Virus record (IMG/VR): IMGVR_UViG_3300029841_000003
From: a virus
Lineage: Duplodnaviria; Heunggongvirae; Uroviricota; Caudoviricetes
Strand: one strand, 5' to 3'
Length of the DNA stretch: 64,000 bases
Every line of letters begins with the position of its first letter. The first letter of the stretch is position 1. The position numbers and the translations under genes were made by a program. The notes beneath the pieces are model-generated. The model ran no database searches, had not been told where the DNA came from, and was given only the letters and a program-made list of their open reading frames with translations. Shown here in pieces: positions 15,862 to 62,455 of the stretch.

Positions 15862-16437
15862 TTGGAGGTAATGCTTGTGGGAAATAAAAAGAAAGTTCTG
15901 ATTGTAGTTGATGTGCAGAATGATTTTGTAACTGGCTCACTAGGTACGCCGGAAGCTCAAGCTATTGTACCTAAAATTAAAGAAAAGTTTGAAGAATATA
16001 AAAATAATGGGGATTATGTAGTGTATACAATGGATACACATAATTCAGATTATTTGAATACTTCTGAGGGTAAAAAACTTCCTGTTGAACATTGTATATA
16101 TCGAACTTCAGGGTGGGAGGTTATAGATGAAATTCATCCTGTAAAAAATAATTATAACAATTTTATGGTATGTAAAAAGTCAACTTTTGGTTATGAAGGC
16201 TGGGATTGGGAAGAAATATTTGGGACAGACAGTGATATAGACAATTTAAACATTGAAATCATAGGTGTGTGTACAGACATCTGCGTTATCACAAATGCTC
16301 TTCTTATCAAAACTTATTATCCGGAGGCAGAGATCACAGTAGATGCGTCATGTTGCGCTGGAACTACACCGGAGAAGCATAAAGCAGCTTTAGAGGTGAT
16401 GAAAAGTTGTCAGATTAATGTGATAGGAGAGAAATAA
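15862..16437 (+). CDS. pncA: nicotinamidase / isochorismatase-family hydrolase (PncA-like)
   Basis: The N-terminus VLIVVDVQNDFVTGSLG carries the isochorismatase-family Asp. The conserved catalytic Cys context IIGVCTDICV is present. Confidence 0.7.
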   Translation: MEVMLVGNKKKVLIVVDVQNDFVTGSLGTPEAQAIVPKIKEKFEEYKNNGDYVVYTMDTHNSDYLNTSEGKKLPVEHCIYRTSGWEVIDEIHPVKNNYNNFMVCKKSTFGYEGWDWEEIFGTDSDIDNLNIEIIGVCTDICVITNALLIKTYYPEAEITVDASCCAGTTPEKHKAALEVMKSCQINVIGEK

Positions 16438-16438
16438 G

Positions 16439-16953: not shown

Positions 16954-17757
16954 ATGATTAAATTAAACGGTGTAGAAATCAAACTTGATAAATATCCGGA
17001 TGGAACATTCTTATTTAAGGATATTCCTCCTATTGGAGGATGGTGCAGAGATAATATTGAATGGTTCTTTGAATCAATGGAAGAGTTAACAGCAGTTGAA
17101 TATATTACTAGATATTGTTGGGACCATAGAGTAGTGCCTAATTTATATATGCCTTATATCCCAGATGCACGTATGGACCGAGTTAAGCATGAGAACGAAT
17201 TATTTACTTTAAAATATTTTGCTCAGACTATTAATTCATTACATTTTGGAAAAGTAGAAGTTTTAGATCCACATTCTGATGTATCTGCTGCATTATTTAA
17301 TAAAGTACATGTAGGATCCCCGAATCGAATGATTGAGGATACTGTCAAGAAGATTGCTAGTGATAATCTTATGATGTTTTATCCGGATGCAGGATCTATG
17401 AAAAGATATTCTTCAGCAGTACATCTTCCATATGCTTTCGGTATTAAGAATAGAGATTGGGAGACCGGAGAAATTAAAGGTTTAGATTTATCAGGTGAAA
17501 TTGATCAATTACCAGGTAAAGACATTCTTATTGTAGATGACATTTGCAGCAGAGGTGGTACTTTTTATTATAGTGCTAAAAAGCTGAAAGAGGCCGGTGT
17601 AGGTAAGATTTATCTTTATATTACTCATTGTGAGAATACTATTTATGAAGGAGAACTTCTGAAAAACAATGGACTGATAGAGAAGATTTATACGACAGAT
17701 ACGATTTTGACAAATCTGGAAAGTCCTAAGATTGAATTGGTTGAGAGATTTAGATGA
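16954..17757 (+). CDS. prs: ribose-phosphate pyrophosphokinase (PRPP synthetase)
   Basis: Shows Prs hallmarks: YPDGTF (FsDGE-like), MPYIPDARMDR (PYfgYaRqDr), VEVLDPHS (DlHa), FYPDAGSMKR and the PRPP-binding loop DILIVDDICSRGGTF. Confidence 0.85.
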   Translation: MIKLNGVEIKLDKYPDGTFLFKDIPPIGGWCRDNIEWFFESMEELTAVEYITRYCWDHRVVPNLYMPYIPDARMDRVKHENELFTLKYFAQTINSLHFGKVEVLDPHSDVSAALFNKVHVGSPNRMIEDTVKKIASDNLMMFYPDAGSMKRYSSAVHLPYAFGIKNRDWETGEIKGLDLSGEIDQLPGKDILIVDDICSRGGTFYYSAKKLKEAGVGKIYLYITHCENTIYEGELLKNNGLIEKIYTTDTILTNLESPKIELVERFR

Positions 17758-18097: not shown

Positions 18098-18458
18098 AGT
18101 TATGTTATCTATAGAAGAACCTAATTCATGTGACGAATGCCCATTTTCAGAATTAGAAACGTATGGATATTATTGCCAATTATTAAATAAATACATTAAT
18201 TCCTTAAAAAGGAAAGAACATTCAACGATTCCTAAATTATGTCCATTAAGAGAATTACCAGATTACCGTACAGAAACATACAAATGGGAAGATAGACTTC
18301 TAAGCTTACAAGACGTGATTGAATCAATGGCTTATGAAATTGCTACATATAGACACTCTAATAGATATTCTCATATAGAAGATGTGGATGATATTTTAAG
18401 AGAATATGAAGTTGATAAAATTATAAAGGAGATGAGAAAGTATGGAACCAATTATTAG
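18090..18458 (+). CDS. small CxxC zinc-ribbon-like protein (paralog)
   Basis: Shares its N-terminal motif with the previous ORF. Confidence 0.35.
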   Translation: MSKVMLSIEEPNSCDECPFSELETYGYYCQLLNKYINSLKRKEHSTIPKLCPLRELPDYRTETYKWEDRLLSLQDVIESMAYEIATYRHSNRYSHIEDVDDILREYEVDKIIKEMRKYGTNY

Positions 18459-18783
18459 TCCTTGGTTGATTTATTTTGCAAGTAGAGCAGATGCAGTGGG
18501 GACTTTATTTCTGATTGTTGCAGTAGCTGCATTTGCAATATGTTTGATAGGATTTGATGATTTAACAAAGAATGGATTCAAGTTATTTATTTCAATTGGG
18601 ATTATTTCTGTAATTTTAACAGTTCTTACACCAACTACCGAAACCGTTTATACAATGATGGTTGCAAATGAACTAACATCGGACAATGTTCAAGCAATTG
18701 GGAAAACCGGCAAGGATGTTATTGATTACATTACTGATCAGATTGATAAAGTTGTAAACGACAAAGAGGAGAATAAAAAATAA
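18442..18783 (+). CDS. small membrane protein (2 predicted TM helices)
   Basis: Hydrophobic stretches LFLIVAVAAFAICLIGF and LFISIGIISVILTVL. Confidence 0.35.
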   Translation: MEPIISPWLIYFASRADAVGTLFLIVAVAAFAICLIGFDDLTKNGFKLFISIGIISVILTVLTPTTETVYTMMVANELTSDNVQAIGKTGKDVIDYITDQIDKVVNDKEENKK

Positions 18784-20255
18784 TGAATACAATGGCAATT
18801 TTACTCTCAGACACATATAAACAGATACATAATAAAATCTATCCAAAAGGACTGACGAAATTAGTATCTTACTGGACCCCACGAAGATCAATGCTTAAGA
18901 ATCAGAACAAAATGGTATTCTTTGGTCTACAGGCATTTATTGAAGAGTATCTGGTCGATTATTTTAATAAAAACTTTTTTGAATTAACAGCAGCAGAAGT
19001 TGAGCATACATATAAATACAGTATGGATATACAGTTAGGAAATAGTTATGACCTAAAGCCTATTATGAAACTTCATAAATTAGGTTATCTTCCAATTCAG
19101 ATACGTGCTATCCCGGAGGGAACATTAGTACCAATGGGCATCCCATGCATCGAAATTACAAACACACATCCAGATTTTGCTTGGGTAGTACAGTGGATCG
19201 AATGTATCCTGCAGGTTGAACTCTGGAAACCATGTGCTCATGCAACAATTGGTCATATGTATAGAGAACTTGCAAATGACTACTATAAAATGACCTGTGA
19301 TGACTTTTTAAGACCTGAAATGGCATGCTCAGATTTTGGTATGAGAGGAATGTCTTGTATGGAAGAGGCAGTAAGATGTTCATCTGCTTGGTTATTATCA
19401 TTTGATAAGACAAGCACAATTCCAGCCATTGATTATATAGATACGTATTATGATGCTTGCTGCTGGACTGAAAAGATTGGAATTGGGGCTGTATCAACAG
19501 AGCATAGCTGCATGGCTTCAAACTTTGCAGTAGACGGTGATGAAATCACATTTGTAAAAAGACTACTTACAGAACTATATCCTAATGCATCTTTTAGTAT
19601 GGTATCTGATACATATGATTACTGGAACATGATTGATAATATCCTTCCGGCTTGTAAAAAAGAAATCATGCAGCATAATGGTAAACTTCTGGTTCGCCCA
19701 GATTCCGGAGATATGGTAGAAATTGCTGTAGAGACAATTGAAAAGCTTTGGAATACATTTGGCGGAACAGTAAATAACAAGGGATATAAAGTGCTTGACC
19801 CGCACATTGGAATTATCTATGGGGACGGATGTACTCTCAACAATGTAGAACAGGTATGGGAAGAACTTAAAGAAAAAGGATTTGCTGCAAACAATATTGT
19901 ATTCGGAGTCGGAGCATTTTGCTTCTCAGCAGTTATAGAACCCGATGGACATATAGTTGTTGTAACTAGGGATATGTTTGGTATTGCTATGAAAGCTACA
20001 TATGGAATTGTTAATGGCGAGCCAATTATGATTTATAAAGATCCAAAAACCGACACGAGTCATTTGAAAAAGTCTCATAAAGGGTGTTGTTGTATATATC
20101 ACGATGACAATGGAGAGTTGCAATGCATGGATGGATTTAATGATGTATTTCGTGACGGAGTATTAAGAACTGTATTTAAAGACGGTGAAATGTATCATAA
20201 AGAAACATTTGAAGACATTAGAGAAAGACTAAACGGAAGAAACAAAGATGAGTAA
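18783..20255 (+). CDS. nadV: nicotinamide phosphoribosyltransferase (NAMPT/NadV)
   Basis: 490 aa, aligned by eye along the full length of NAMPT: ILLSDTYK, AIPEGTLVP, DFGMRGMSCMEEA, VSDTYDYWN, LVRPDSGD, GYKVLDPHIGIIYGDG and VFGVGAF. Confidence 0.85.
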   Translation: MNTMAILLSDTYKQIHNKIYPKGLTKLVSYWTPRRSMLKNQNKMVFFGLQAFIEEYLVDYFNKNFFELTAAEVEHTYKYSMDIQLGNSYDLKPIMKLHKLGYLPIQIRAIPEGTLVPMGIPCIEITNTHPDFAWVVQWIECILQVELWKPCAHATIGHMYRELANDYYKMTCDDFLRPEMACSDFGMRGMSCMEEAVRCSSAWLLSFDKTSTIPAIDYIDTYYDACCWTEKIGIGAVSTEHSCMASNFAVDGDEITFVKRLLTELYPNASFSMVSDTYDYWNMIDNILPACKKEIMQHNGKLLVRPDSGDMVEIAVETIEKLWNTFGGTVNNKGYKVLDPHIGIIYGDGCTLNNVEQVWEELKEKGFAANNIVFGVGAFCFSAVIEPDGHIVVVTRDMFGIAMKATYGIVNGEPIMIYKDPKTDTSHLKKSHKGCCCIYHDDNGELQCMDGFNDVFRDGVLRTVFKDGEMYHKETFEDIRERLNGRNKDE

Positions 20256-21142: not shown

Positions 21143-21152
21143 GAAAAGATTT

Positions 21153-21653
21153 ATGATTAAAATTATTGAAGGTAACATTGTAGATGCACAGACCGATTAT
21201 ATAATTCATCAAGTTAATTGCCAAGGAGAAATGAATACTGGAGTCGCTAAAGCATTAAGAGATTATGACGAAGGTATTTATATACATTATAGAAACGTCT
21301 GTAAATTACGTGAGTTTAATCCAGAATTACTTCTTGGAACATATGACGAGTACTTTATCAGAAGGAAAAATCAAGAGATATTGTCCTTATTTGCACAAGA
21401 CAAGTATGGATATGATGGAAAACAGTATACTGATGTTAAAGCTTTTCGAGAAGGATTAAATTTTATTCGACAACAAATACCTGTTTATTGGTTTGATGCT
21501 GATAACAGACCTCACAAGACAACCATTGCACTCCCATATAAAATAGGCTGCGGAAGAGGAGGAGCAGACTGGGAAGTGGTTTATAAGATTATAGAAGAAG
21601 AATTAAGTAGTTTTGAAGTAGAATTGTGGAAATTGGAGGAGCAGAATGTTTAA
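21153..21653 (+). CDS. macro-domain-like protein (ADP-ribose binding/processing)
   Basis: The N-terminus MIKIIEGNIVDAQTDYIIHQVNCQGEMNTGVAKALRD parallels the macro-domain pattern (GDIT...DAIVNAAN..GGGGVDGAIHRAAG). The start was chosen at the internal ATG, because the track start at 21111 overlaps the previous gene. Confidence 0.45.
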   Translation: MIKIIEGNIVDAQTDYIIHQVNCQGEMNTGVAKALRDYDEGIYIHYRNVCKLREFNPELLLGTYDEYFIRRKNQEILSLFAQDKYGYDGKQYTDVKAFREGLNFIRQQIPVYWFDADNRPHKTTIALPYKIGCGRGGADWEVVYKIIEEELSSFEVELWKLEEQNV

Positions 21654-22791
21654 TGTAGAAAAAGCAACAAATGATTGTATTCAGTGGATTAGAGATTGGA
21701 GAGAAGAGAATGGTCCTGGATGTAATCTCATAGTAGGTATTTCCGGTGGCGTTGACTCTTTAGTAGCTGCTAAGCTATGTGTGGAAGCCGTTGGAGCTGA
21801 CAAAGTTCTCGGAGTAATCATGCCGAACTATAAACAGGATGATATTGATGTGGCTTATGATATTTGCCAGCATGTATTAAACATTGATTATCTTACTATT
21901 AATATTGGATCAGCTTATGATGATATTATTGATCAAATTGATGCTGCATTTAATGTAACAGATCAGACATTAATTAATCTCGCTCCTAGACTAAGAATGA
22001 CCACTCTATACGGGGTGTCACAGTCACACAATGGAAGAGTGGTTAATACATGTAATCTTTCTGAGGATTACATCGGATACTCCACTAGATATGGTGACGC
22101 AGCAGGGGACTTTTCACCGTTGGCTCAGTTCACAAAGAGTGAAGTAAAAAGAATCGGTTATTATTTAGGACTACCTAAAAAATATATAGAGAAAACACCA
22201 TCAGATGGGTTATGCGGTAAATCAGATGAAGATAGCTTCGGATTTACCTATGCAGTATTAGATAGATATATTCGTACAGGTATTTGCGATGATCCGGAAA
22301 TTAAAAGACGGATTGATCGTTTACATACAAAAAATAAGTTTAAACTGAAACCAATGCAGTATTTTAATTATAAAGAGGAGAAAACAGATATGAATATGTC
22401 ACCAGATGAGATTTTAAAAGCACTTGAAAAAGCAGTAGCGAAAAAAGAAAAAGAGCATACTATTGGAGAAGAGCTTAGAAGCTGTGAGCGTCAGATTAAA
22501 GATGCTTTAGGCATTGATGTATATATTGTACCTAAAAATAAAACTGATAAACAGGTTTGTAAAACACTTTCGAAAGATGATATCACATTTGTAGGAAGAA
22601 CAAAAGATATTGCTACAGGAAAAATTAGAACTACTGTAGGGTTCAAAGATGGAACACAGACTTCTGTAGTCTTAAATGATTGGGAAGACGAAGATGATAC
22701 TGAAAAAGCCATTATGTGGTGTTTGCTTAAGAAGTGTTTCAAATCAAAAAGAAGCTTAGAAAAAGTAATTTATTCAATGGAGGACATGTAA
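21646..22791 (+). CDS. nadE: NH3-dependent NAD+ synthetase (NadE) with ~130-aa C-terminal extension
   Basis: PP-loop SGGxDS (GISGGVDSLVAAKLC) plus NadE-type downstream blocks (RMTTLYGV, GDFSPLA). Residues ~250-381 form an extra domain of unknown function. Confidence 0.8.
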   Translation: MFNVEKATNDCIQWIRDWREENGPGCNLIVGISGGVDSLVAAKLCVEAVGADKVLGVIMPNYKQDDIDVAYDICQHVLNIDYLTINIGSAYDDIIDQIDAAFNVTDQTLINLAPRLRMTTLYGVSQSHNGRVVNTCNLSEDYIGYSTRYGDAAGDFSPLAQFTKSEVKRIGYYLGLPKKYIEKTPSDGLCGKSDEDSFGFTYAVLDRYIRTGICDDPEIKRRIDRLHTKNKFKLKPMQYFNYKEEKTDMNMSPDEILKALEKAVAKKEKEHTIGEELRSCERQIKDALGIDVYIVPKNKTDKQVCKTLSKDDITFVGRTKDIATGKIRTTVGFKDGTQTSVVLNDWEDEDDTEKAIMWCLLKKCFKSKRSLEKVIYSMEDM

Positions 22792-23781: not shown

Positions 23782-24300
23782 ATGAAAATAAAAGCAAAGC
23801 AAATAATTGTAGATGGGAGCACATCTTATAAATATTATAAACCTAAATTCTGTTGCAAAGCATTGGAAGAGAATCCTAGGATAGTTATTTCTAATGAATA
23901 TCCTGATAACTACTTATGTAGAACTTGTGAAACTATAGAATGCCATGGTTGTGACTATAAAACTGATGAAACTTTTGGAATTTTCTTTTACATAAGCGAA
24001 GAAGTCCAAGACTGGGAAGATACATGGCCTGAAGACTATTATTACCCTCTTAAATTCTGTCCATTTTGCGGAGAACCAATTGAAGTTGATGTCATAGAAA
24101 CCATTGATAAAACAGAAGAAGCAGAAAAGGTATCTGAGGTTGCAACGAAGCTACGAAAACAGTTATGGACATGTGATAGCAAGAAAAAGTGTGCAGAGTT
24201 AGAAAAAGAGATAAGGAACTTAGACGATATAGTAAATTATTATTATTCAACAGGAGAAATTGATGAAAATAGAGAAAATCAAAAAATTGTTGAAAAGTGA
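23782..24300 (+). CDS. Cys-rich zinc-finger-like protein
   Basis: 172 aa with CC..C, CRTCETIECHGC and CPFCGEP motifs. Confidence 0.35.
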   Translation: MKIKAKQIIVDGSTSYKYYKPKFCCKALEENPRIVISNEYPDNYLCRTCETIECHGCDYKTDETFGIFFYISEEVQDWEDTWPEDYYYPLKFCPFCGEPIEVDVIETIDKTEEAEKVSEVATKLRKQLWTCDSKKKCAELEKEIRNLDDIVNYYYSTGEIDENRENQKIVEK

Positions 24301-25296: not shown

Positions 25297-27918
25297 ATGA
25301 ATTTTAATGGATTAAAAAGTAGCGAAGTAGAGGTTAGTAGGACTACATATGGAAGTAATAAGCTTCCGGAACCTGAATTGAAAAAATGGTATCATTTTGC
25401 TAAGGAAGCATTAACTGAACCAATTACTATGATTCTAATAATAATTGCTTTGTTTCAGTTGGTTTTAGGCGCTATGGGAGTAATGTCTCTTTCTGAACCT
25501 GTAATGATTATAGTGGTTTTAGCTATTGTTACTGGAATTGCTATTAAGACAGGTCTAGGCGTACAGAAATCTGCAGCAGAGCTAAGAGCAAAAACGGCAG
25601 TTAGATATTGTGATGTTGTCCGAGATGGAAACGTACAGACAATTAATAAAGATGATCTGGTAGTAGGTGATTTAGTTCTATTGAGAACTGGACAAGAGAT
25701 TTTTGCAGATGGATTTATTGTTGATGGAGAAATTTCTGTTAATAACGCCGCTATCAATGGAGAGACAAAAGAATGTAGAAAAATTCCTAGTGCTAATTAT
25801 AAGCATGTTAAAACAACATCAACTACTGCATATACGGATCAGTGTTCTCTCTTTGCAGGAACAGTTATCATGTCTGGTGAAGGAAAAATGATTGTTACAG
25901 ATGTTGGTGTTAATACAGTTAATGGTGATACTCTTGTCAAAATGCAGACTTTAGAGCCTCCTAAGACAGCTCTTGATATTGCTCTGGATCATTTGTGTGA
26001 TTTTATTTCAAAATGGGGAACAATTGCGGCAGCATTAGCATTTGTAATTATGACAATTACAGGTATCTTAAATGCTGGAAGCTTAAGTCAGTATTTCTTA
26101 GGAAGTATTCTTGAAAGTATTCAGAAGGTAGCACAGAATGTCTCAAATGCATTGACAATTATTGTTGCGGCTGTACCGGAAGGTCTGCCACTCATTGTAA
26201 AACTTGTAACTAAACAGAATGTATCGACAATGGAAAAATTCAATATTCTTGCGAAGAATACTGGTAAAATTCCTGAATTGGCGTATGTTAATTTAATTTG
26301 TACGGATAAGACAGGAACTCTCACAACAGGTGAAATGACCTCTACAGTTATGATTAACGGTAACTGTCAGGATATTTTTAATAAGGAAAGTTCGCTCAAC
26401 GAGCTAATTGATTTAAACATTTGCATGAACAATAGCGCAGTGTTTGACTCTAATGGAAACATCACTGGTGGTAATTCGATTGATCGAGCAGTGCTTGATA
26501 TGCTTTCTCCTGAAGATGCACAAAAAATACAGAATAAAGCTATCATAAAGAAACGTGTTCCATTTAGTAGTGAAAATAAATTCTCTGCAATTACTTTAAG
26601 TAATGGAGCAAATGATTTTACTGTTTATAAGGGTGCACCAGAAAAACTGATTGAGAAATGCAAAACTTATCTCGATAATGATGGCAATGTAACTGAGCTA
26701 ACAGAAGAAAAACGAAAAGCTTTGAAAAGTCATATTAAGGGATTAACAGAGAAAGCAATGAGGTGTATTGCATTGACTATCTCAGATAAAGCTGATGATG
26801 GTCTCCCTGATGAAATGAATTTCCTTGGAGTCATTGGAGTTGTTGACCCGGTTAGGAATGAAGTTCCAGAAGCAGTAAAAATTGCTCATAAAGCTGGAAT
26901 TCAGGTAATTGAAATTACTGGTGATTGCATGGAGACGGCTAAGGCTGTTGCTATGGAAGCTGGCATTTATAAGCCTGGAGACTTAGCAGTTACTAATGAT
27001 GAGTTTGAGGCAATGTCAGATGTAAAAGTAAAAGAAATTATTCCACAGTTAAGAGTAATTTCCAGATGCTCACCGAATACGAAACTTCGTCTTGTAACAT
27101 TAGCGCAAGAAATTGGAATGTCTGTAGCAATGACAGGTGATGGTGTGAACGATGCTCCTGCATTAAAGAAAGCAGATGTAGGCTTTGGAATGCAAGACGG
27201 ATCTGATGTAGCAAAAGAAGCAGCAGACATTGTTTTGACGGACAATAATTTTGCAAGTGTAGTAAAAGCAGTCGAACTTGGTAGAACATTTATGCATAAC
27301 ATTATGATGTTCCTTGAATTCCAGCTGCCTATCAATATTTCGTTGTTGATCTTAAGTATGGTATTTCCAATTATTTCTGGTGGCTCTGCTCTATTAGCAG
27401 CAGTTCAGATCCTTATTGTAAATATCATCATGGATTCACTTAACTCATTAAGCTTTGGTGGAGAACCGCCAAAAGAAGAATATATGAATGAAGAGCCTAT
27501 CATGAAAGGATCCGGATTATTTATCCGTGGAGCGAAAGGGAGAATTGCATTAAGTTCAATTGTATTTATTGCTTTATTTGGTGTAATTACATTTGGTCCA
27601 GTTGGGAATATGTTTACAACAAAACTTTCGGCTATGACAGCGAGATTCGCTTTATTGTGTTTAATGGCAGTATTTAATGGATTCACTATTAGAACAGATA
27701 GTATGAATCTTTTCAAAGGAATTAAAAATAATAAATTATTTGTGTATATCGCATTAGGTATTTTTGCAATGACTGTAGTTTTGTGTAATTTTGTAGGAAA
27801 TTTAGTACAGACAACTCCAATGGATGTTAAACAGTGGATTGTAGTCTTAGTGACAGCTTTTATGATTGTGCCTGTAGATTGGATTAGGAAAGCAATTTGT
27901 AAGAAAGGAAGTAAATAA
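25297..27918 (+). CDS. P-type cation-transporting ATPase
   Basis: 873 aa with the phosphorylation motif ICTDKTGTLT, a TGD motif (ITGDCMETA), the hinge MTGDGVNDAPALKKADVGFGM and multiple TM segments at both ends. Confidence 0.85.
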   Translation: MNFNGLKSSEVEVSRTTYGSNKLPEPELKKWYHFAKEALTEPITMILIIIALFQLVLGAMGVMSLSEPVMIIVVLAIVTGIAIKTGLGVQKSAAELRAKTAVRYCDVVRDGNVQTINKDDLVVGDLVLLRTGQEIFADGFIVDGEISVNNAAINGETKECRKIPSANYKHVKTTSTTAYTDQCSLFAGTVIMSGEGKMIVTDVGVNTVNGDTLVKMQTLEPPKTALDIALDHLCDFISKWGTIAAALAFVIMTITGILNAGSLSQYFLGSILESIQKVAQNVSNALTIIVAAVPEGLPLIVKLVTKQNVSTMEKFNILAKNTGKIPELAYVNLICTDKTGTLTTGEMTSTVMINGNCQDIFNKESSLNELIDLNICMNNSAVFDSNGNITGGNSIDRAVLDMLSPEDAQKIQNKAIIKKRVPFSSENKFSAITLSNGANDFTVYKGAPEKLIEKCKTYLDNDGNVTELTEEKRKALKSHIKGLTEKAMRCIALTISDKADDGLPDEMNFLGVIGVVDPVRNEVPEAVKIAHKAGIQVIEITGDCMETAKAVAMEAGIYKPGDLAVTNDEFEAMSDVKVKEIIPQLRVISRCSPNTKLRLVTLAQEIGMSVAMTGDGVNDAPALKKADVGFGMQDGSDVAKEAADIVLTDNNFASVVKAVELGRTFMHNIMMFLEFQLPINISLLILSMVFPIISGGSALLAAVQILIVNIIMDSLNSLSFGGEPPKEEYMNEEPIMKGSGLFIRGAKGRIALSSIVFIALFGVITFGPVGNMFTTKLSAMTARFALLCLMAVFNGFTIRTDSMNLFKGIKNNKLFVYIALGIFAMTVVLCNFVGNLVQTTPMDVKQWIVVLVTAFMIVPVDWIRKAICKKGSK

Positions 27919-27919
27919 A

Positions 27920-28687
27920 ATGGGATTTTTTGATAAGTTATTTGGGAAAAAAGATGAGGAAGCAGCAGTAGAGTTATCTTCTGCTGTAACTCAGCAACCT
28001 GTATATGAAGAAAAGTTACAGACAATTGATATGTCTAAGCACAGTGAAAATCTTGGCAAAGTACTTATTGATATGTCTAAGGGAAGCAAGATTGATATGA
28101 CAAAACATACAGCTAGAGTAGCTCTTGCAATGGATTATTCAGGAAGTATGGATTGGCTGTATGATAATGGATCTGTACAGGAAACCATTTCTCGTTTGTT
28201 GCCTATTGCTCTAAGATTTGACGATAATGGAGAACTTGAGAGTTGGTTGTTCTCAAATGGAGCGGAGCGCTTAAAAGCTGCTAACGCTGATAATTATAGT
28301 AGTTATGTTAAAAATGTTATGAAAAAAGCTCATATGTATATGGGTGGTACTAATTATGCTCCTGTATTGAAAGAAATGGTTACATATTATAAAGATATTG
28401 AGCCAAGTGAGATTCCAGCATTTATCATCTTTATTACAGATGGTGAGAACAGTGACACTTCTGCCACCAATGCAGTTATTAAAGAGCTTTCAGAGTACAA
28501 CATCTTTGTACAGTTCATAGGAATTGGGGATGAAGATTTTGGTTATTTAAAATCCCTTGACAATATGAAAGGTAGAAAACATGATAACACCGGTTTTACA
28601 GCAGTAAAAGACATGAATAAAATGTCTGATGAACAGTTATATACAGAGATTCTTCGTCAGTATAAAGACTGGCTGAATAATAAATAA
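27920..28687 (+). CDS. von Willebrand factor A (vWA) domain protein, TerY-like
   Basis: MIDAS motif DYSGSM, then GGTNYAP and IFITDG, which are typical vWA blocks. Confidence 0.6.
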   Translation: MGFFDKLFGKKDEEAAVELSSAVTQQPVYEEKLQTIDMSKHSENLGKVLIDMSKGSKIDMTKHTARVALAMDYSGSMDWLYDNGSVQETISRLLPIALRFDDNGELESWLFSNGAERLKAANADNYSSYVKNVMKKAHMYMGGTNYAPVLKEMVTYYKDIEPSEIPAFIIFITDGENSDTSATNAVIKELSEYNIFVQFIGIGDEDFGYLKSLDNMKGRKHDNTGFTAVKDMNKMSDEQLYTEILRQYKDWLNNK

Positions 28688-28704
28688 AAAGGAGATAAAG
28701 AGAT

Positions 28705-29343
28705 ATGGCAGTAATCAACATGAGCAAAAATCAGAAAATTAGTATGGTAAAAGAGGATGGTACAGGTATTAAGAACTTCTTCATTGGAGTCAATTGGGAT
28801 CAGAACCGTTATGCTGGTGAAGCAGATATTGACTTTGATATCAATGGATTTTTAACAGATTCAAGTCGCAAAGTAGTATACCCAGAAGATTTAGTAAACT
28901 ATAAAACCTATGAAGATGGGTCTGCATATCCTTGGGTAGATTATTCAGGAGACAATAAAACTGGTGATGATTCTCAGGGAATGATTTTTAATGGAAAGCA
29001 TTATGACGAATATTTTATTGTACATGCTGACACATTCCCGAAAGATAAAACAGAATTTACTATCTGCTTAACAATTTTTAGGGCATTACAGCGTATGCAG
29101 AACTTTGGAATGGTCTCCAATGCAGTTATGACAATTTGTGATTACGACAATCCAGATGGTGATAAGTATGAATATGATCTGTCTGAGAATGAGAACTTTG
29201 AAAAATTGAATGCAGTAGAAATGGGTAAATTATACCGTTACGGAGATGGATTCAAATTCCAGGCATTAGGTTCCGGTTATGTGGGAGGTATGACAGAACT
29301 GTTTAAAAACTTTGGGCTTGATATTGATGAGGGGAGAGACTAA
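28705..29343 (+). CDS. terD: TerD-domain protein (tellurium-resistance/stress TerD family)
   Basis: Blocks align by eye to TerD: ISMVK, GVNWD, SGDNKTGDDSQG, FGMVSNAVMTI, GKLYRYGDGFKFQALGSGYVGGMTELFKNFG. Confidence 0.8.
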   Translation: MAVINMSKNQKISMVKEDGTGIKNFFIGVNWDQNRYAGEADIDFDINGFLTDSSRKVVYPEDLVNYKTYEDGSAYPWVDYSGDNKTGDDSQGMIFNGKHYDEYFIVHADTFPKDKTEFTICLTIFRALQRMQNFGMVSNAVMTICDYDNPDGDKYEYDLSENENFEKLNAVEMGKLYRYGDGFKFQALGSGYVGGMTELFKNFGLDIDEGRD

Positions 29344-30089
29344 TGAACTTATTTGAAATTGTGGTCCTAATAGCTGTAGTAATTAGTATTGTGTTATTTA
29401 TTGCACGTACAACTCAAATTGGTAAGAGAGTGTCACTTAGAGTTGCTGGTACAGCAGACGAAGCAATTCAAAAAGATGCAGCCACCCCTGAGGGAGCTAA
29501 AGCTTATTATAACGCTGCTATTGAAAAGAAAGAAGATGAACTTCAGCAGGAAAATGTAAGATATCAACAGATGCTTGGTAAGATTTCCAATTATGAAGAT
29601 GACCTGTTCCATTTGAAGAAAGATGCCATGAAAGCAGATGTAAATGTAAATGCTTGTGTGGATCGAGGAGATGACGAAGCAGCAAAAGTCTACTTAAAAG
29701 AACAACAGGAGCTGAATGATAAGATTGATTTTATTAAGAGTACATTAAAAGAATGGAAAGAGAATGCTGACGTACAGAAAGAAAAAGTAGAAGTATTACA
29801 GCAACAGCTTAATGATTTAAAAGCAGAAAAAGAAAGTGCTGTTTTAACTTTGGAAACAGCTCAGGCATCAAAAGCTTTTAATGTAACACCGGGAGTATCT
29901 TCTAGTGAAGAGGAAAAGATGCTAGAGAAAGTACGTGACGGAGTTAAAAAGCAAAAAGAGGCTGCTGATGGAGCTAGGATCGTTTATGAAAGTTCTACTA
30001 TTGTGCAAAAACAGCGTCTGGATAAGAAAATGAAAGATGATGAAATTAATAAAAAGTTGCAGGAACTGAAAACAAAGAAAGGCAAATAA
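29343..30089 (+). CDS. PspA/IM30-like coiled-coil protein with N-terminal TM helix
   Basis: N-terminal hydrophobic segment followed by a long coiled coil. Stretches such as DRGDDEAAKVYLKEQQEL resemble PspA (KDREDLARAALIEKQKL). Confidence 0.4.
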   Translation: MNLFEIVVLIAVVISIVLFIARTTQIGKRVSLRVAGTADEAIQKDAATPEGAKAYYNAAIEKKEDELQQENVRYQQMLGKISNYEDDLFHLKKDAMKADVNVNACVDRGDDEAAKVYLKEQQELNDKIDFIKSTLKEWKENADVQKEKVEVLQQQLNDLKAEKESAVLTLETAQASKAFNVTPGVSSSEEEKMLEKVRDGVKKQKEAADGARIVYESSTIVQKQRLDKKMKDDEINKKLQELKTKKGK

Positions 30090-30322
30090 AATGATAGTGT
30101 TAAATATAGGCGTGTTTGTAGTATGCTTATTAACCTGTTTCTTAGTTGGATTCTTTGTAGGGAAGAGAAAATAAGTGTAGTAACAAAAGGTTAAGGTGGG
30201 GTTCAATTCCTCACCTACACTTAAGGAGGTTAAACAATGAAATAAAATATGGAGGTGATATTACGCAAAGAGGAAAACGAATATTAAATAAACCAATTGA
30301 TGACGCATGTGAAAAGGAAATT

Positions 30323-30505
30323 TTGGCACCAACAAAAAGAGTGATCACTGTAGAAGCTGAATACGACTTGACTGATCCTAAATTAATTGGAGCAAAAATA
30401 ACTGACAGAGATATAGTAGAAGAATTGGTAAAAGATGAGTTTATTACATCTTTTGAGCAAAATGATGGATTTGTAAGTTTGACAGTAACTTGTAGTGATT
30501 ATTAG
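30323..30505 (+). CDS. hypothetical small protein
   Basis: 60-aa ORF. Confidence 0.25.
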   Translation: MAPTKRVITVEAEYDLTDPKLIGAKITDRDIVEELVKDEFITSFEQNDGFVSLTVTCSDY

Positions 30506-30516
30506 GAAGGAGAAAA

Positions 30517-30939
30517 ATGATTAATAGTTTTACTGGAGATTATTACTTTTTAAGTAACTTTTATATGGCCCCGGTAAGTTATAACGGATGGGACTATACA
30601 AATAATGAAGCAGCTTTTCAAGCACAGAAAACAAAAAATCGTAGACTAAAATTTCAGTTATTCTCTCAAGCTAGCCCATCAGAAGCAAAGGCAGCAGGTA
30701 GAAAGATTGATTTGAGATCAGATTGGGAAGAAGTGAAAGATAAAGTAATGTATGAAATCGTACTGGCTAAATTCACTCAGAATCCAGACCTTAAGGAAAA
30801 ATTACTTGCTACAGGAGATGAATATTTGGAAGAGGGTAATACTTGGGGAGATACTATTTGGGGAACTGTAGATGGAGTTGGAGAAAATAGGCTTGGGAAG
30901 ATACTTATGAGAGTGAGAGATGAATTAAATGAAACTTAA
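30517..30939 (+). CDS. NADAR (YbiA/DUF1768) domain protein
   Basis: FTGDYYFLSNFY...AFQAQK...W..VK..VMYEIVLAKFTQNPDLKEKLLATGDEYLEEGNTWGDTIWG matches the NADAR family pattern (F.G....LSNF...Eh.fqA.K...W......M...l.KF.q...l...Ll.Tg...L.E....D..WG). Confidence 0.65.
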   Translation: MINSFTGDYYFLSNFYMAPVSYNGWDYTNNEAAFQAQKTKNRRLKFQLFSQASPSEAKAAGRKIDLRSDWEEVKDKVMYEIVLAKFTQNPDLKEKLLATGDEYLEEGNTWGDTIWGTVDGVGENRLGKILMRVRDELNET

Positions 30940-31055
30940 CATATTTTTTATCATTCTTGATGCTATTTTTATAGCAGTATCATTGGTAGACCTTATTACT
31001 TATAAAAATTTATTTAGTTTAATGCTAGTAGCTTTTTTCGCTTGGACATTTGTAA

Positions 31056-31340
31056 TTGATATTAAAGAATATAAAGGAGACAAATAACATGGTAAAAACA
31101 TTAAAAGAAACAACAGAAATGATGGTTAGCCCAGATTATAAAGAAAGATTCAAAGCTGAATATTACCAGTTAATGCTTAGATTCAGAGGTTTACAGTCTA
31201 TGCTCTTTAAATGGGACAATGGAACTCTTAGTTTTGAACCAACATGCCCAAGAAGTACTTATAATATTCAGATTGATGCTATGGCAAGCTATTTAGCTAT
31301 CTTAGAAGCTAGGGCTGTTATGGAAGGTATTGAATTATAA
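31056..31340 (+). CDS. hypothetical protein
   Basis: 94-aa ORF. Confidence 0.3.
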   Translation: MILKNIKETNNMVKTLKETTEMMVSPDYKERFKAEYYQLMLRFRGLQSMLFKWDNGTLSFEPTCPRSTYNIQIDAMASYLAILEARAVMEGIEL

Positions 31341-31518
31341 AGGAGAGAGTATGAATCCAGTATTTGTATTTTTAATATTGGTTGGAGCTGTAGTTTTATG
31401 GTTCCTATTATCTGCATTGTTTTATCCATTCGGACGATTCTTGCATAGAATTTGGAAAGATGCAGTAGACGAAATAAACAGAGAAGAAAATAAAGAAAAA
31501 GATAAGGAGAATGAGTAA
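31330..31518 (+). CDS. small membrane protein
   Basis: 62 aa with a TM helix (VFVFLILVGAVVLWFLLSALFYPF). Confidence 0.3.
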   Translation: MNYKGESMNPVFVFLILVGAVVLWFLLSALFYPFGRFLHRIWKDAVDEINREENKEKDKENE

Positions 31519-32489
31519 TGAAAAAGAAAAAAGGTTTTTTAGGTGGGGTTGGATTAGCAGTAATAATTGCAGCAGGATTAATTTGTGTAGCAAAGTGCAC
31601 AGTAAGAGTTCCTGCTGGTTATGTAGCTGTAGAATACAAGATGAACGGTGGAATTTCAAAAGATACTCTTTCACAGGGATGGAATTTGATTTCACCTACA
31701 GTAAAAACATCACTGTATTCAATTGGTATTGAACAGTCTTATCTGACTTCAGAAGATAAAGGTGATTCACCAAAAGATGAGAGTTTTAAAACTCCTACCG
31801 CAGATGGGAAACAGCTTCTTGTTGATTTGGAATTCTCTTATAAATTCGATCAGGATCAAGTTGCTGATGTATTTACAAGATTTAAAGGTCAGTCCGGAGA
31901 AAGTGTAAAAAATACTTTCATTAAACCAAAGATGAAAGCGTGGACACAGGAAGTAACTGCTAAGTATCCGGTAACAGATGTATTTGGTGATAAACGCCAG
32001 GAACTGAATGAAGCACTTGACAAATACTTGAAAAAGAAATTTGAGCCATATGGAATCATCATTGATACTGTAAACTTTACTTCAATTTCTACAGATGATG
32101 AAACTCAGGCTGCTATTCAGAAGAAGGTAAATGCACAGCAGGAACTGGAACTTGCAAATATTGAAGCTAAGACTGCAAAGGTACAGGCAGATAAAGATAA
32201 GGAAGTTGCTCTCATCGCAGCGGAGCAGGATAAAGAGAAAGCCGCTATTGAAGCTGAACAGGCGAAAATCACTGCGGAAGGTAAAGCTGAAGCTACAAGA
32301 ATTAAAGCGGATGCTGAAGCAGAAGCAAATAAAAAGATCGCTGAGTCACTTACTCCAGAACTTATTGAGAAACAGAAGATTGATAAGTGGAATGGTGATG
32401 TGCCGAAGGTACAAGGTGGAAATGCTGCAACAATTGTTGACGCAGGAGAATTAACATCAGGCAATGTAGCAACTGTTGAAAATAAATAA
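31518..32489 (+). CDS. SPFH/band-7 (prohibitin/HflC-like) domain membrane protein
   Basis: N-terminal TM helix, an SPFH-like core (VPAGYVAVEYKMNGG ... TVNFTSIS) and a C-terminal Ala/Glu/Lys-rich coiled coil. Confidence 0.65.
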   Translation: MKKKKGFLGGVGLAVIIAAGLICVAKCTVRVPAGYVAVEYKMNGGISKDTLSQGWNLISPTVKTSLYSIGIEQSYLTSEDKGDSPKDESFKTPTADGKQLLVDLEFSYKFDQDQVADVFTRFKGQSGESVKNTFIKPKMKAWTQEVTAKYPVTDVFGDKRQELNEALDKYLKKKFEPYGIIIDTVNFTSISTDDETQAAIQKKVNAQQELELANIEAKTAKVQADKDKEVALIAAEQDKEKAAIEAEQAKITAEGKAEATRIKADAEAEANKKIAESLTPELIEKQKIDKWNGDVPKVQGGNAATIVDAGELTSGNVATVENK

Positions 32490-32509
32490 TTAATAATGAG
32501 GGTAACGTA

Positions 32510-32770
32510 TAGTGAGAACTGTGGACATATACCACACTGACGGTAGTGTAGGGATTTTGCGTCAGTATAAAGAGGTGGCTGCGTAGGGTGAGGATAACGT
32601 TAACAACTACGAATTGTAATGTTGGCCCAAAGCAAGTAAGTATAGTTATGATATCTGCTGCCATAGGCAACACCTCCTTCAAAAATAATGTGTGATACAA
32701 TCCCATATCACATTACCCATTCAGAAGATCCTCACCCGGTACAGACCTGGGATCAATAGTATTGTACTTT
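32510..32770. ncRNA. candidate structured ncRNA or regulatory leader (GC-enriched intergenic island)
   Basis: ~290 nt with no ORF. GC is visibly higher than in flanking phage DNA. Several inverted repeats are present, including CTGACGgtagtgtagggattttgCGTCAG and CCTCACC...GGTGAGG. Confidence 0.2.
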
Positions 32771-32777
32771 AGGTGAG

Positions 32778-32981
32778 GTGGTTTGTCAATATAAGGAGAG
32801 TACAATGATAAAAACTACGATTACGGAGACAACTAAAAAATATGATAAAGAAGGCCATCTTATTGAGGAGACAACTAGAACTGAAACTACTGAGGATAAT
32901 ACTATAACATTTAGTTCTTACCCCTATGGGACAACTCAGAAGGATTGGACCTTAACTACAAATGTAGGAGAGAGTTTATGA
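32778..32981 (+). CDS. hypothetical Thr-rich small protein
   Basis: 67-aa ORF with RBS AAGGAGAG. Confidence 0.3.
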   Translation: MVCQYKESTMIKTTITETTKKYDKEGHLIEETTRTETTEDNTITFSSYPYGTTQKDWTLTTNVGESL

Positions 32982-33343
32982 AAAAGAAAGTATTAAGTAT
33001 TTTAGGAGTTCTATTGATAAGTATTTCAACATTAACTGGTTGCGCTAAATGCATTGATAAAAAAGAGGAAAGTGTGAAGGTCACAGTTGTAAATGAATAT
33101 TATAAACCTAAAGAAACCCGTTTTACAGGTATGGTTAATCATGTTCCGCAATTTCGAACTGATTATGCTGAATATGAAATTACGGTAAATTATAACGGAA
33201 CTGAATATTCACTTAATGATGAAAGTACATATCGTAAATATCATGGAAGAATAGGGCAAACAGTGTCTGCCGTATTGATTACAAAAACATACGATAATGG
33301 CAAGGTAAAACAATGGATTGATAGTTTAGGAGGAATTAAGTGA
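32945..33343 (+). CDS. putative lipoprotein
   Basis: Signal peptide followed by a lipobox (LISISTLTGC). Confidence 0.45.
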   Translation: MDLNYKCRREFMKKKVLSILGVLLISISTLTGCAKCIDKKEESVKVTVVNEYYKPKETRFTGMVNHVPQFRTDYAEYEITVNYNGTEYSLNDESTYRKYHGRIGQTVSAVLITKTYDNGKVKQWIDSLGGIK

Positions 33344-60723: not shown

Positions 60724-61917
60724 TTAATCAAGTAAATTTATGACTTCTGATTTATGTTTATTCATGATATGCATATATATGTTATAAGTTGTGGAAACAT
60801 CTTCATGTCCAAGTATCTCTGATATTACCTTGATATCTACAGGTTGGTTCTGTTCCCATCCTTTCTGCAGCAGCATGGACCCAAATGAATGTCTGAGATC
60901 ATGTAAGCCGAAACCGTCAGATTCAATATCAGCTCTCTTGAGGATTGCTTTAAGCGTCCTGGTAAGAGTTGACTGTGATGGTGGAATATTGTTCTTAGTT
61001 ACGAATATATGGTCATCTCCGGATGCTTCCAGTCCAGGAGACACAGTTTTAAGCCAGAGCAACTGTTCCTTTGCACGATTTGCCAGAGGAATGACTCTGA
61101 TTGACTTAGGACGCTTTGGTGTATCTATGAGCCACTGATATTTGCTATCTACTTTGATACGCTCCATTGTCTTATCTATGTTAATGGTATTATTCTTAAA
61201 ATCTATATCTTTCCATGTGAGAGCATAAGCTTCTCCTATACGCATACCAGTATAAAGAACTAACAGACAGAACCTAGCATTACGTCCATAGATGTAATCA
61301 CCTGTCTTTACGCCTGGCAAAGCAGAATCTGCTTTCATAAGAGCCGTCTTATAAAACTTCTCAGCTTCTTCTAAAGATAAGAAAGAGTGCTCTTTCTTCT
61401 GTACTGCATATTTTGACTTATGCGGCATCTTAATCCCTTTTGCAGGATTCTCTGTGATGATGTTACAGGATACAAGATAGTCGAAAACAATATTGAAAAG
61501 AGTGCGTGTCTTTTTAACAGTACTCTCAGAATATTTCTTCGACATATTTGTATAGTATGTTTGAATGACAATCTTGTCTATAGCAGCCATCTGGACATCA
61601 GCAATCGGATTAGTTTTAATATAGCAGCGATTTGTAGACTGAAGAGTAGCATAGTTATTTGTCTTGAAAGTCGGCTCCAACGTCTGCAGGATATTATCTA
61701 TACATTCCCCAAGAGTCATCTTACGATAATCTTTTTGGTTAACCCTCATACTCTTAGCTTCAAATTCTTGTATCTTGCGTTTTACATCAGCTTTTGTCCT
61801 TCCTACAAATTCTTTCCGGCTTGTCATACCATCATATTTCTTACGGTACCTATAGTATGTAATGTCATTCTTTGTTACAGTATCCCATGATCCTGAACCT
61901 TTTTCCCTTCTTGCCAT
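60724..61917 (-). CDS. int: tyrosine integrase (phage integrase family)
   Basis: R box (YTGMRIGEAYALTWKDI), HDLRHSFGSML (HxLRH) and GHEDVSTTYNIYMH (catalytic Tyr). The start was chosen at MARREKG, after RBS GGAGGG. The track start at 61986 is upstream. Confidence 0.85.
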   Translation of the reverse strand: MARREKGSGSWDTVTKNDITYYRYRKKYDGMTSRKEFVGRTKADVKRKIQEFEAKSMRVNQKDYRKMTLGECIDNILQTLEPTFKTNNYATLQSTNRCYIKTNPIADVQMAAIDKIVIQTYYTNMSKKYSESTVKKTRTLFNIVFDYLVSCNIITENPAKGIKMPHKSKYAVQKKEHSFLSLEEAEKFYKTALMKADSALPGVKTGDYIYGRNARFCLLVLYTGMRIGEAYALTWKDIDFKNNTINIDKTMERIKVDSKYQWLIDTPKRPKSIRVIPLANRAKEQLLWLKTVSPGLEASGDDHIFVTKNNIPPSQSTLTRTLKAILKRADIESDGFGLHDLRHSFGSMLLQKGWEQNQPVDIKVISEILGHEDVSTTYNIYMHIMNKHKSEVINLLD

Positions 61918-62039
61918 ATACATCCCTCCGTTGTGCAAATTTACACTAATTTTACTTACAAAATAAAAAACTTTACTTTTTCCCAAAATTATGATAATAT
62001 GAATTATGTGTTAAGTAAATTATAGCATACGGATAAGGA

Positions 62040-62259: not shown

Positions 62260-62331
62260 GCGCCTGTAGCTCAGTGGATAGAGCAGTGGTTTCCGGTACC
62301 ATGTGCGGGGGTTCGATTCCCTTCAGGCGTG
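62260..62331 (+). tRNA. tRNA-Arg (anticodon CCG), host-type GC-rich
   Basis: Acceptor GCGCCTG/CAGGCGT (G1.U72), D-arm GCTC-AGTGGATAG-AGC, anticodon stem GTGGT/ACCAT, loop TTCCGGT and T-loop TTCGATT. GC content switches to ~50% from here on. Confidence 0.65.
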
Positions 62332-62455
62332 CTGCCTGGGACGTATGTACAGTTCCGGTGCGTTGTATCACAGGAGTTATCAGAATCGGGAACTGTCAGA
62401 AATCGTATGGCGGCAGTGAACGGAGCAAACGGTAACTCATAAGGAGGACAAGAAC

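Follow-up and report, generated by a model that had tools for sequence, protein, structure and literature searches.

NADARs hydrolyze ADP-ribose linked to N2 of guanine, and DarT1 and NADAR form a toxin–antitoxin pair (PMC11543638). In vitro, ADP-ribosylated guanine (ADPr-G) is cleaved by each of the four NADAR subtypes from E. coli and phages (PMC11125620); the same modification is also cleaved in RNA, whereas phosphate-linked ADP-ribose (ADPr) is not (PMC11833690), and NADAR-type as well as YbiA-type members remove ADPr from cytidine (ADPr-C; PMC12945103). Every NADAR tested in these papers, across the four families that one of them defines, hydrolyzed ADPr-guanine on DNA or RNA (PMC11125620, PMC12945103, PMC11833690). 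In phages, the orphan NADARs T4 AdfN (gp30.3), NADAR^Bas32/33, and NADAR^Bas60 allow phages to grow again on hosts that carry DarTG1 (PMC11825919/PMC11257639). Here, we consider a NADAR gene at positions 30517–30939 of IMG/VR virus record IMGVR_UViG_3300029841_000003, a 64,000-nucleotide stretch of Caudoviricetes DNA that is referred to as the window, together with the NAD+-salvage operon in which relatives of this gene lie. Our tentative reading, to which we give a probability of roughly 45%, is that the product may act as a phage counter-defense enzyme that strips ADPr from guanine, and probably from cytosine, modified by DarT1- or pierisin-type ADP-ribosyltransferases (ARTs).

The open reading frame (ORF) runs from ATG to TAA on the plus strand and encodes 140 residues, with coordinates exactly as in a first-pass annotation of the window made from the letters alone. 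That annotation had recognized a NADAR signature, and the ORF and all four motifs (F5-x-G7-x4-L12SNF15, A33FQAQK38, K85F86, and G111DTIWG116) are present. The Pfam DUF1768 search that it suggested was run and gives the same answer, far above chance: the protein matches NADAR (PF08719; DUF1768/COG3236) with E = 1.3e-29 and 103.9 bits, compared with a gathering score of 35.1, over profile positions 9–162 of 163. PHROG 1017, a family of unknown function, is matched at 3e-47. By phmmer, the sequence matches E. coli YbiA (PDB 2b3w) at 8.6e-19 and the ADPr complex of the Phytophthora nicotianae NADAR (PnNADAR; 8bau) at 7e-8. An AlphaFold2 (AF2) model, built from an alignment of 27 homologues, has a mean predicted local distance difference test score of 86.2 and is uncertain only in the first 11 residues; its helices and two hairpins are those expected for a NADAR core, in which a helical core lies between two small β-sheets. 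A Foldseek search of the model against the PDB returned, at E ≤ 0.001, only YbiA (template modeling (TM) score 0.83, 37% identity) and PnNADAR (TM score 0.76, 28% identity). There is no doubt about the biochemical class, an intact NADAR whose predicted reaction is cleavage of an N-glycosidic ADP-ribosyl linkage, which would free ADP-ribose (ADPR). The gene and its putative ribosome-binding site are as follows.

30517..30939, plus strand: coding sequence of a NADAR-family ADP-ribosyl N-glycohydrolase, assigned by Pfam, AF2 model, Foldseek, conserved residues, and an identical NCBI protein

30504..30512, plus strand: Shine-Dalgarno-like AGGAAGGAG, 4 nt 5' of the NADAR ATG, by direct reading of the sequence

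The identical NCBI entry, WP_227194140.1/MCB6689324.1, is named "NADAR family protein [Blautia wexlerae]". The identification as a NADAR is correct, but the gene is already annotated and its candidate function already published.

The active site was mapped by combining a phmmer alignment to 8bau with the residue roles given in PMC11543638; residue numbers in the 8bau chain differ by two from those of the paper, and the register was checked at E43, K50, and E125. The residues of PnNADAR and their equivalents in the window protein are listed below.

PnNADAR E43: E31

PnNADAR K50: K38

PnNADAR K75: K58

PnNADAR R79: R62

PnNADAR D86: D69

PnNADAR W89: W70

PnNADAR R93: K74

PnNADAR E125: E106

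PnNADAR D130: D112

PnNADAR W133: W115

The sole ADPr-contact position that is unlike is the adenine-stacking Y84, which is Arg in the window protein (R67), in YbiA, and in the NADAR of a T5-like phage. The 27 homologues show no variation at E31, K38, W70, E106, D112, or W115; K58 and D69 are kept in no fewer than 90% of them, and R62 varies. When five sequences are aligned, E31 and K38 stand opposite E36 and K43 of T4 AdfN, two positions at which alanine mutants lose anti-DarTG1 activity (PMC11825919), and they align with E88/K95, the catalytic Glu and phosphate-binding Lys of EcC7. The third acidic position is a Glu (E106, in L-E-E-G-N-T-W-G-D), the hallmark of the YbiA family; it is Asp in DarT1-linked NADARs and His in T4-type phage NADARs (PMC11543638). 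The family, the fold, the intact active site, the homology to tested enzymes, and the gene context are thus demonstrated here.

From the homologues we infer the activity, substrate, and infection role of the protein. E31 and E106 would grip the distal ribose of ADPr, while K38, K58, R62, W70, D112, and W115 would hold the diphosphate, and the N-glycosidic bond between ribose C1'' and the base nitrogen would be hydrolyzed to release free ADPR. The substrate would be phage DNA or RNA that host DarT1- or pierisin-type ARTs have ADP-ribosylated at guanine, and probably at cytosine. The enzyme would be coexpressed with further anti-immunity genes, namely a Sequestin sponge and a NARP1-like module that rebuilds NAD+.

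Among described systems, NADAR^Bas32/33 (PMC11825919) is, like the window protein, a stand-alone phage NADAR of ~140–150 residues with no N-terminal extension. The two are 47% identical over their full length and share their catalytic residues (E, K, E, D, and W) as well as a GNTWGD(T)xWG motif. NADAR^Bas32/33 neutralizes DarT1, and with it several phages can grow on hosts that carry DarTG1 (PMC11825919). It differs from the window protein in host (Enterobacteria versus Blautia), in gene context (nucleotide metabolism versus NAD salvage and Sequestin), and in isoelectric point (pI; 9.0 versus 4.95). The sequence aligned was bas33_0070, the NADAR of BASEL phage HildyBeyeler (MZ501074), with 47% identity in a global alignment and E = 8e-33; MZ501074 is equated with "Bas33" by its bas33_ locus tags only, and a BASEL supporting-figure legend has "KurtStettler (Bas33)". 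Because a moderately close homologue (47%) belongs to the tested group, the proposal in the first-pass annotation that the gene might counter DarTG restates a published function. The two general statements that it made in support, that NADARs remove guanine-linked ADPr (PMC11543638, PMC11125620) and that phage NADARs serve in counter-defense (orphan members counter DarTG1; PMC11825919), are both in the literature.

The other relatives share less. E. coli YbiA (2B3W), the top structural match, has the same minimal core fold and the same YbiA-type Glu, and hydrolyzes ADPr-G and ADPr-C in vitro (PMC11125620, PMC12945103); unlike the window gene, ybiA is a chromosomal, LexA-regulated housekeeping gene, and its product is an N-glycosidase of riboflavin intermediates that does not protect against DarT1 (PMC11125620). 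DarG1 (BC4488 family, PMC11543638) belongs to the same superfamily and has in common with the window protein the Glu/Lys catalytic pair and the predicted hydrolysis of ADPr-guanine, whereas its adjoining DarT1, its catalytic Asp (D171 in E. coli C7), and its basic N-terminal extension are all absent here. T4 AdfN (gp30.3, PF08010) is likewise an orphan phage NADAR, acting in counter-defense in T4, with E36/K43 opposite E31/K38. Its action is restricted to T-even phages, the DNA of which is modified. The window protein, by contrast, is only 29% identical to AdfN, has E106 where AdfN has His, and scores 19.7 bits against PF08010, for which the cut-off is 36.

Several observations weigh against a role in reversing base ADP-ribosylation. 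YbiA and T4 gp30.3, which are active on ADPr-G in vitro, gave no rescue from DarT1 (PMC11125620). The third acidic residue is Glu and not the catalytic Asp of DarT1-linked NADARs, and the basic N-terminal extension that has been proposed as the DNA groove of those proteins is missing; there is no room for it, because the conserved core motif starts at residue 5. The protein is also acidic, with a pI of 4.95 and a net charge of about −4, compared with a pI of 9.0 for the Bas33-type protein, 9.4 for YbiA, and 9.0 for the T4 protein. Within the close NADAR clade, however, the pI ranges from 4.85 to 9.67, and because this spread is wide, the acidic pI is weak evidence; as a proxy for nucleic-acid binding it was dropped as decisive. 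The dominant gene context of the relatives is an NAD+-salvage operon and not DNA metabolism. In favor of the role, homologues in Bacillus and T5-like phages have DNA-repair or nucleotide-metabolism neighbors: an SbcC-like ATPase follows the AR9 NADAR, Nrd, ThyX, and dUTPase genes accompany that of phi18-2, and the NADAR of the T5-like (bas33_) phage also lies among nucleotide-metabolism genes. Finally, a PADLOC scan of the 83 window ORFs revealed no DarT or other ART, and a brief literature search for DarT in Blautia turned up nothing useful. As phage NADARs that overcome DarTG1 are published, the closest one located being the BASEL T5-like NADAR at 47% identity, the anti-DarTG proposal is plausible but neither new nor established.

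The same scan bears on the idea that the NADAR is an antidote to an ART of the phage itself, as in the YarT–YbiA or DarT1–NADAR pairs. NADARs are known as antitoxins adjoining ARTs (PMC11125620 for the DarT1 context), and in T4-like phages NADAR is expressed early together with ARTs (PMC9503650). Here, the flanking ORFs are 60 and 52 residues long with no ART features, and no ART, DarT, or toxin model matched any of the 83 ORFs, all from the window, outside which lie 70 kb or more of the phage; we consider an antidote role improbable in the extreme.

The Glu at the third acidic position raises the matter of the riboflavin label carried by YbiA-type proteins. The window protein scores 82.5 bits against NCBIfam TIGR02464 (riboflavin biosynthesis intermediates N-glycosidase), for which the cut-off is 73.7. 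As controls, E. coli YbiA scores 169.5, the SPbetaL3 NADAR 80.6, and the T5-like (bas33_) NADAR 66.8; because proteins of different function are not separated by the model, the label has no discriminating power. The first-pass annotation had named membership in a riboflavin-pathway paralog family as one example of an outcome that would speak against it; TIGR02464 is passed only marginally, and the NADAR reading stands. As a refutation of an ADPr role, the label was rejected on the strength of the controls and of the hydrolysis of ADPr-G and ADPr-C by YbiA itself. One could still imagine YbiA-like damage control, in which the protein would cleave N-glycosidic bonds in intermediates of the riboflavin pathway or in reactive by-products of the NAD+ synthesis of the phage. 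The score just above the cut-off, the 37–38% identity to E. coli YbiA, and the common YbiA-type Glu would fit. A true YbiA scores 169.5, however, while the member of the DarT1-countering T5-like group has a score similar to that of the window protein, and the benefit to the phage is not obvious. The ORF is single-domain, with no RibA or RibD fusion, and no riboflavin-synthesis domain was found in 20 neighboring ORFs by Pfam, in the gene tables of related contigs, or, by eye, in the rest of the window, which argues against damage control. We regard it as very unlikely.

Upstream of the NADAR gene, the window contains a module of NAD+-salvage genes and a macro-domain gene, listed here.

15862..16437, plus strand: isochorismatase-family, nicotinamidase-like gene (Pfam PF00857, 5e-24), syntenic with the NADAR operon in relatives

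16954..17757, plus strand: Prs-like gene, probable Adps (ADPR pyrophosphate synthetase) (PHROG 619, 1e-66; Pfam Prs sub-threshold only)

18783..20255, plus strand: NAMPT/Namat-like phosphoribosyl- or ADPR-transferase gene (Pfam NAPRTase, 1.2e-29; NAMPT_N, 4.6e-10)

20248–21142: two small ORFs within the NAD+ module

21153..21653, plus strand: macro-domain protein of 166 residues (TARG1/DarG/Poa1p clade), candidate Adpp-like ADPR-1''-phosphate (ADPR-1''-P) phosphatase, from PHROG 335, PDB profiles, and PADLOC

21646..22791, plus strand: NAD synthase NadE (Pfam PF02540, 1.7e-48), its start overlapping the macro gene

A Prs-like gene paired with a NAMPT-like gene in a phage is the published signature of NARP1, in which ADPR is pyrophosphorylated by Adps and the resulting ADPR-PP is joined to nicotinamide by Namat. 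The Prs-like protein of the window is homologous to phage "ribose-phosphate pyrophosphokinases", those of Felixounaviruses included, and gene pairing and homology lead us to infer that the two genes encode the Adps and Namat of a NARP1-type pathway. A nicotinamidase gene and nadE stand beside this pair at 15862–22791 (plus strand), an interval that also includes a HAD-like gene. This arrangement suggests an extended or deamido route, from nicotinate through deamido-NAD to NAD+, which is not described in the NARP literature that we found. A homologue of the NMNAT gene of a sister lineage, described below, is absent from the window.

It took PHROG, PDB profile, and PADLOC searches to recognize the macro gene. 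Against Pfam Macro the protein has E = 0.086, whereas PHROG 335 ("phosphatase") is matched at 1.5e-36. A profile of eight sequences of this macro family matches, in the PDB, BT1257 (5e-13), DarG macrodomains (2e-12 for 5m3i and 4e-11), a Poa1p-type ADPR-1''-P phosphatase (2e-7), and TARG1/OARD1 (7e-7), and the protein itself matches the macro part of the PADLOC DarG model at 6e-15. A MacroD-type macro domain was also sought and set aside: an E. coli YmdB query found nothing among the window ORFs, and Pfam Macro was sub-threshold too. Adpp is a Poa1p-like macro phosphatase associated with NARP1 that converts ADPR-1''-P produced by RES-domain defense proteins to ADPR (bioRxiv 10.64898/2026.01.28.702374), and the window macro gene is a candidate for an Adpp of this kind, judging by its homology and position. 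An Adpp-type macro protein would answer NAD+-depleting immunity and not ADP-ribosylating immunity. We also considered whether the macro protein could be a DarG2-type hydrolase of thymine-linked ADPr that, with the NADAR, would make a dual anti-DarT pair. Its matches to DarG macro models in the PDB profile and PADLOC searches would be in keeping with such a pair; the family alignment, however, shows by eye no invariant Lys at the position of the TARG1/DarG catalytic Lys, and the NARP1 context also fits the published Adpp phosphatase.

In the window, the NADAR gene lies 9.4 kb downstream of the macro–nadE pair. The arrangement in relatives is different. Our comparison set consisted of 80 IMG/VR loci with NADARs 61–100% identical to that of the window and five metagenome or genome loci, 85 in all, in which homologues of the window marker genes were located; the flanks were used as fetched, and all 85 loci come from one gut-phage clade and so are not independent samples. 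A NAD-salvage gene is present in the fetched flank of 68 loci and within 2.5 kb of the NADAR gene in 48, and a macro gene lies within 2 kb in 44. The gene orders are as follows.

32 loci: nicotinamidase, Prs/Adps-like, NAMPT/Namat-like, macro, NADAR, NadE, with overlaps of 4 nt between macro and NADAR and of 8 nt between NADAR and NadE

11 loci, sister lineage: Namat-HAD fusion, Tpt1/KptA, small ORF, macro, SLOG-like, 191-residue ORF, NADAR, lipoprotein, NadE, small transmembrane ORF, NMNAT-like

2 loci: as in the 32 loci, minus macro

1 locus: NADAR after NadE

1 locus: NADAR between Namat and NadE

12 loci: NADAR 7.5–8 kb downstream of Namat, macro, and NadE

10 loci: the arrangement of the window itself

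16 loci: NAD genes not seen within 2.5 kb in the available sequence; one of these loci has a nicotinamidase-like gene 1.9 kb downstream, and in several the upstream flank is short

The linkage between NADAR and NAD genes thus persists through at least six gene orders. In the sister lineage, the NADAR is 86–92% and the Namat-like protein up to 99% identical to its counterpart in the window, and the lipoprotein gene that follows NADAR there has a homologue in the window at 32984–33337. One sister-lineage locus (L028) carries, at 7261–12358, NADAR together with Tpt1/KptA, macro, a 141-residue SLOG-like protein, NadE, and a 191-residue NMNAT-like protein with an HxGH motif; the SLOG and NMNAT labels were given by eye, and the NAMPT of this locus is fused to a HAD-like domain.

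These gene orders indicate that, in the lineage of the window, NADAR was split from the NAD+/ADPr module by rearrangement, and that macro and NADAR are partners in one mosaic NAD+/ADPr module in this phage clade. The first-pass annotation had counted two independent ADPr-processing domains; the macro gene at 21153..21653 is real, but because the two genes are adjacent or overlapping in a single NAD+-salvage operon in relatives, they are not two independent acquisitions. A link between NADAR and phage NAD-salvage genes and the co-occurrence of Macro, NADAR, and SLOG, that of Macro and NADAR in DNA viruses included, had been described by Iyer et al. 2022 (PMC9503650), who expected the substrates to be soluble ADPr derivatives. 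What appears to go beyond the literature that we located, as judged from gene order, is the NADAR as an integral and translationally coupled member of an Adps/Namat/macro/NadE operon across a large gut-phage clade. The context is not universal, in that the NADAR genes of AR9, phi18-2, the T5-like phage, and SPbetaL3 lie elsewhere. In SPbetaL3, whose NADAR is the nearest from a cultured phage (62% identity), the NADAR gene (5992–6429) precedes gad1 (9793–10680), annotated as anti-Gabija, by ~3.5 kb and probably belongs to an anti-defense region of this SPbeta-like phage.

The operon leads to a different account of the enzyme, in which it would act on a soluble N-linked ADPR derivative that host NADase or TIR immunity produces, destroying a signal and feeding free ADPR to the Adps/Namat-like enzymes. 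Candidate substrates would be N7-cyclic ADPR (N7-cADPR, type IV Thoeris), His-ADPR (type II Thoeris), canonical N1-cADPR, a base-exchange product, or base-ADPr. Accessory enzymes that regenerate ADPR are published for NARP1 operons (2026): RyDEP converts 2'/3'cADPR to ADPR, and Adpp does so with ADPR-1''-P. Besides these two, a glycosidase and a macro phosphatase, the NADAR of this clade of gut Firmicutes phages could represent a third type of accessory. In most relatives, NADAR occupies the same kind of slot as these enzymes in an Adps/Namat-like operon, directly after an Adpp-like macro gene, and all of them would yield ADPR; their folds, on the other hand, are unrelated to that of NADAR, and the NADAR gene of the window is outside the operon. 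The two 2026 preprints on these accessory enzymes (Adpp, bioRxiv 10.64898/2026.01.28.702374; RyDEP) make no mention of NADAR. The close linkage at 48 of 85 loci to a NAD-salvage gene and at 44 of 85 to macro, kept through at least six gene orders with the sister lineage included, argues for a feeding role, as do the ability of the NADAR fold to handle small-molecule N-ribosides in YbiA, the soluble substrates predicted for phage NADARs by Iyer et al., and the acidic pI of the window protein and its proximity to a sponge for 3'cADPR. The NADAR activities reported in the literature consulted here, however, are on base-ADPr in nucleic acids and, for YbiA-type members, on riboflavin intermediates, and none is on free ADPR derivatives. 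The ~9 kb between gene and operon in the window also argues against feeding, as does the origin of the 85 loci in a single clade; anti-defense genes cluster for reasons unrelated to chemistry as well, and the assignment of Adps/Namat, as opposed to Prs/Nampt, comes from gene pairing only. On balance, we think a feeding role possible and somewhat unlikely. Removal of ADPr from bases and feeding of NARP1 are close readings, and they are not mutually exclusive.

The sister lineage also brings up RNA repair, in which NADAR, with Tpt1/KptA, RNA ligase, and the macro phosphatase, would clear ADPr derivatives that arise from tRNA repair. Tpt1/KptA lies just upstream of macro in same-phage variants (L003 and L004) and in the sister lineage (L028), the window itself carries an RlaP nucleotidyltransferase, an RNA ligase, and a kinase/HD protein, and de Souza & Aravind as well as Iyer et al. 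have put forward such an association. The chemistry speaks against it: NADARs are inactive on the phosphate-linked ADPr-RNA ends of Tpt1-like enzymes (PMC11833690), and the known Tpt1 by-products Appr>p and Appr-1''p have no N-glycosidic bond. Tpt1 is, moreover, absent from the window. A role in RNA repair therefore seems to us quite unlikely.

In favor of a counter-defense role, the NADAR gene of the window is packed head-to-tail with a known anti-defense family, Sequestin. The neighboring genes are given below.

30323..30505, plus strand: 60-residue ORF with no family match, ending 11 nt before the NADAR start and kept beside NADAR in the same phage lineage

30929..31087, plus strand: 52-residue ORF, hydrophobic and membrane-like, that shares its first 11 nt with the end of the NADAR gene

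31089..31340, plus strand: Sequestin-family gene, 83 residues (Pfam PF21825, 62.7 bits versus a cut-off of 24.8)

The 60-residue ORF is called as a gene in a variant locus (L003) and the 52-residue ORF in eight of eight metagenomic copies; NADAR and the 52-residue ORF are probably translationally coupled. The Sequestin gene starts one nucleotide past the 52-residue ORF, so that one small ORF separates it from NADAR. Sequestins (PF21825) are phage sponges that bind 3'cADPR, the signal of type I Thoeris (bioRxiv 10.1101/2025.07.12.664507). Sequestin stands beside NADAR only in the lineage of the window (10 of the 85 loci). The first-pass annotation had deduced strong selection by ADP-ribosylating host immunity; this conclusion goes too far, as Sequestin and the Adps/Namat-like context point at least equally to Thoeris and NADase defenses.

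Farther out, the surroundings of NADAR (25297–32489, plus strand) are a Ter-type stress and membrane cluster. Upstream lie genes for a P-type cation ATPase (873 residues), a vWA-TerF-like protein, TerD, and a PspA/IM30-like protein that is below the Pfam threshold, and downstream lies an SPFH/Band 7 gene. A promoter and terminator scan of 29900–32900 found fewer promoter-like sites than in shuffled sequences and one weak terminator-like site, and no transcription unit could be defined within that interval.

The window has a G+C content of ~33% and nearly all of its genes on the plus strand. A tyrosine integrase gene (60724..61986, minus strand) is followed by tRNA-Arg(CCG) (62260..62332), a probable attachment site, beyond which the G+C content is 44%; because integrase, tRNA-Arg, and the rise in G+C stand together, we place the end of a prophage here. 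The host-flank genes beyond the junction encode Blautia proteins (a 301-residue SH3-domain protein and a polysaccharide deacetylase). The exact NADAR protein occurs in 2,333 blocks of a metagenome assembly collection, on contigs of 200–294 kb, where the conserved neighbors include the SPbeta-type replication genes yorF and yorH, and IMG/VR viral contigs of ~137–175 kb carry the same NADAR gene. The gene belongs to a very common, large SPbeta-like prophage of Blautia, in a Lachnospiraceae species that is dominant in the human gut.

A megablast search with 29000–33000 gave no match in 50,697 phage records, and because no close relative is sequenced among these records, only protein-level comparison is informative. 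By tblastn, 608 of the 50,697 records contain NADAR homologues, the best matches being SPbetaL3 (62%), phi18-2 (57%), and AR9/PBS1 (55%); next come ~90 T5-like phages of Salmonella and Escherichia at 45.5%, HildyBeyeler among them. A protein database search yielded at least 7,971 NADAR relatives, and a search of genome contigs with the NADAR yielded one distant match, in a Saccharibacteria bin, with 53% identity.

Elsewhere on the plus strand, the window carries a nucleic-acid repair set (8141–10186, 10928–11860, 24260–25294, and 36352–37650) comprising a 681-residue lookalike of an NAD+-dependent DNA ligase (by eye), a P-loop kinase with HD, a nucleotidyltransferase of the RlaP "RNA repair pathway" type, and an RNA ligase (PF09414). 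Four phage tRNA genes (Gln-TTG, Met-CAT, Phe-GAA, and Leu-TAG) lie at 13039–15262 (plus strand). A DnaE/PolC-type polymerase lookalike (by eye; 44978–49762, plus strand) is split into ORFs 44978–47542 and 48374–49762 by a homing-endonuclease-like ORF of 214 residues (47651–48295). One ORF among those of the window matched the PADLOC homing endonuclease model.

Identification of the NADAR alone adds little, as the gene is already annotated, phage NADARs are common, and the anti-DarTG1 role is published. The role of phage NADARs that are not linked to DarT is, however, called open in the NADAR literature, and the position of NADAR in a conserved operon supplies a hypothesis on that role that can be tested directly. 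If the enzyme does feed NARP1, it would destroy a signal or dead-end product while fueling NAD+ reconstitution, and the NARP1 arms race would extend to N-linked ADPR products. The joint presence of NADAR, a Sequestin sponge, and a NARP1-like module is documented here for one extremely prevalent Blautia prophage, which suggests that conflicts over NAD+ and ADP-ribose are of importance to a dominant commensal of the human gut.

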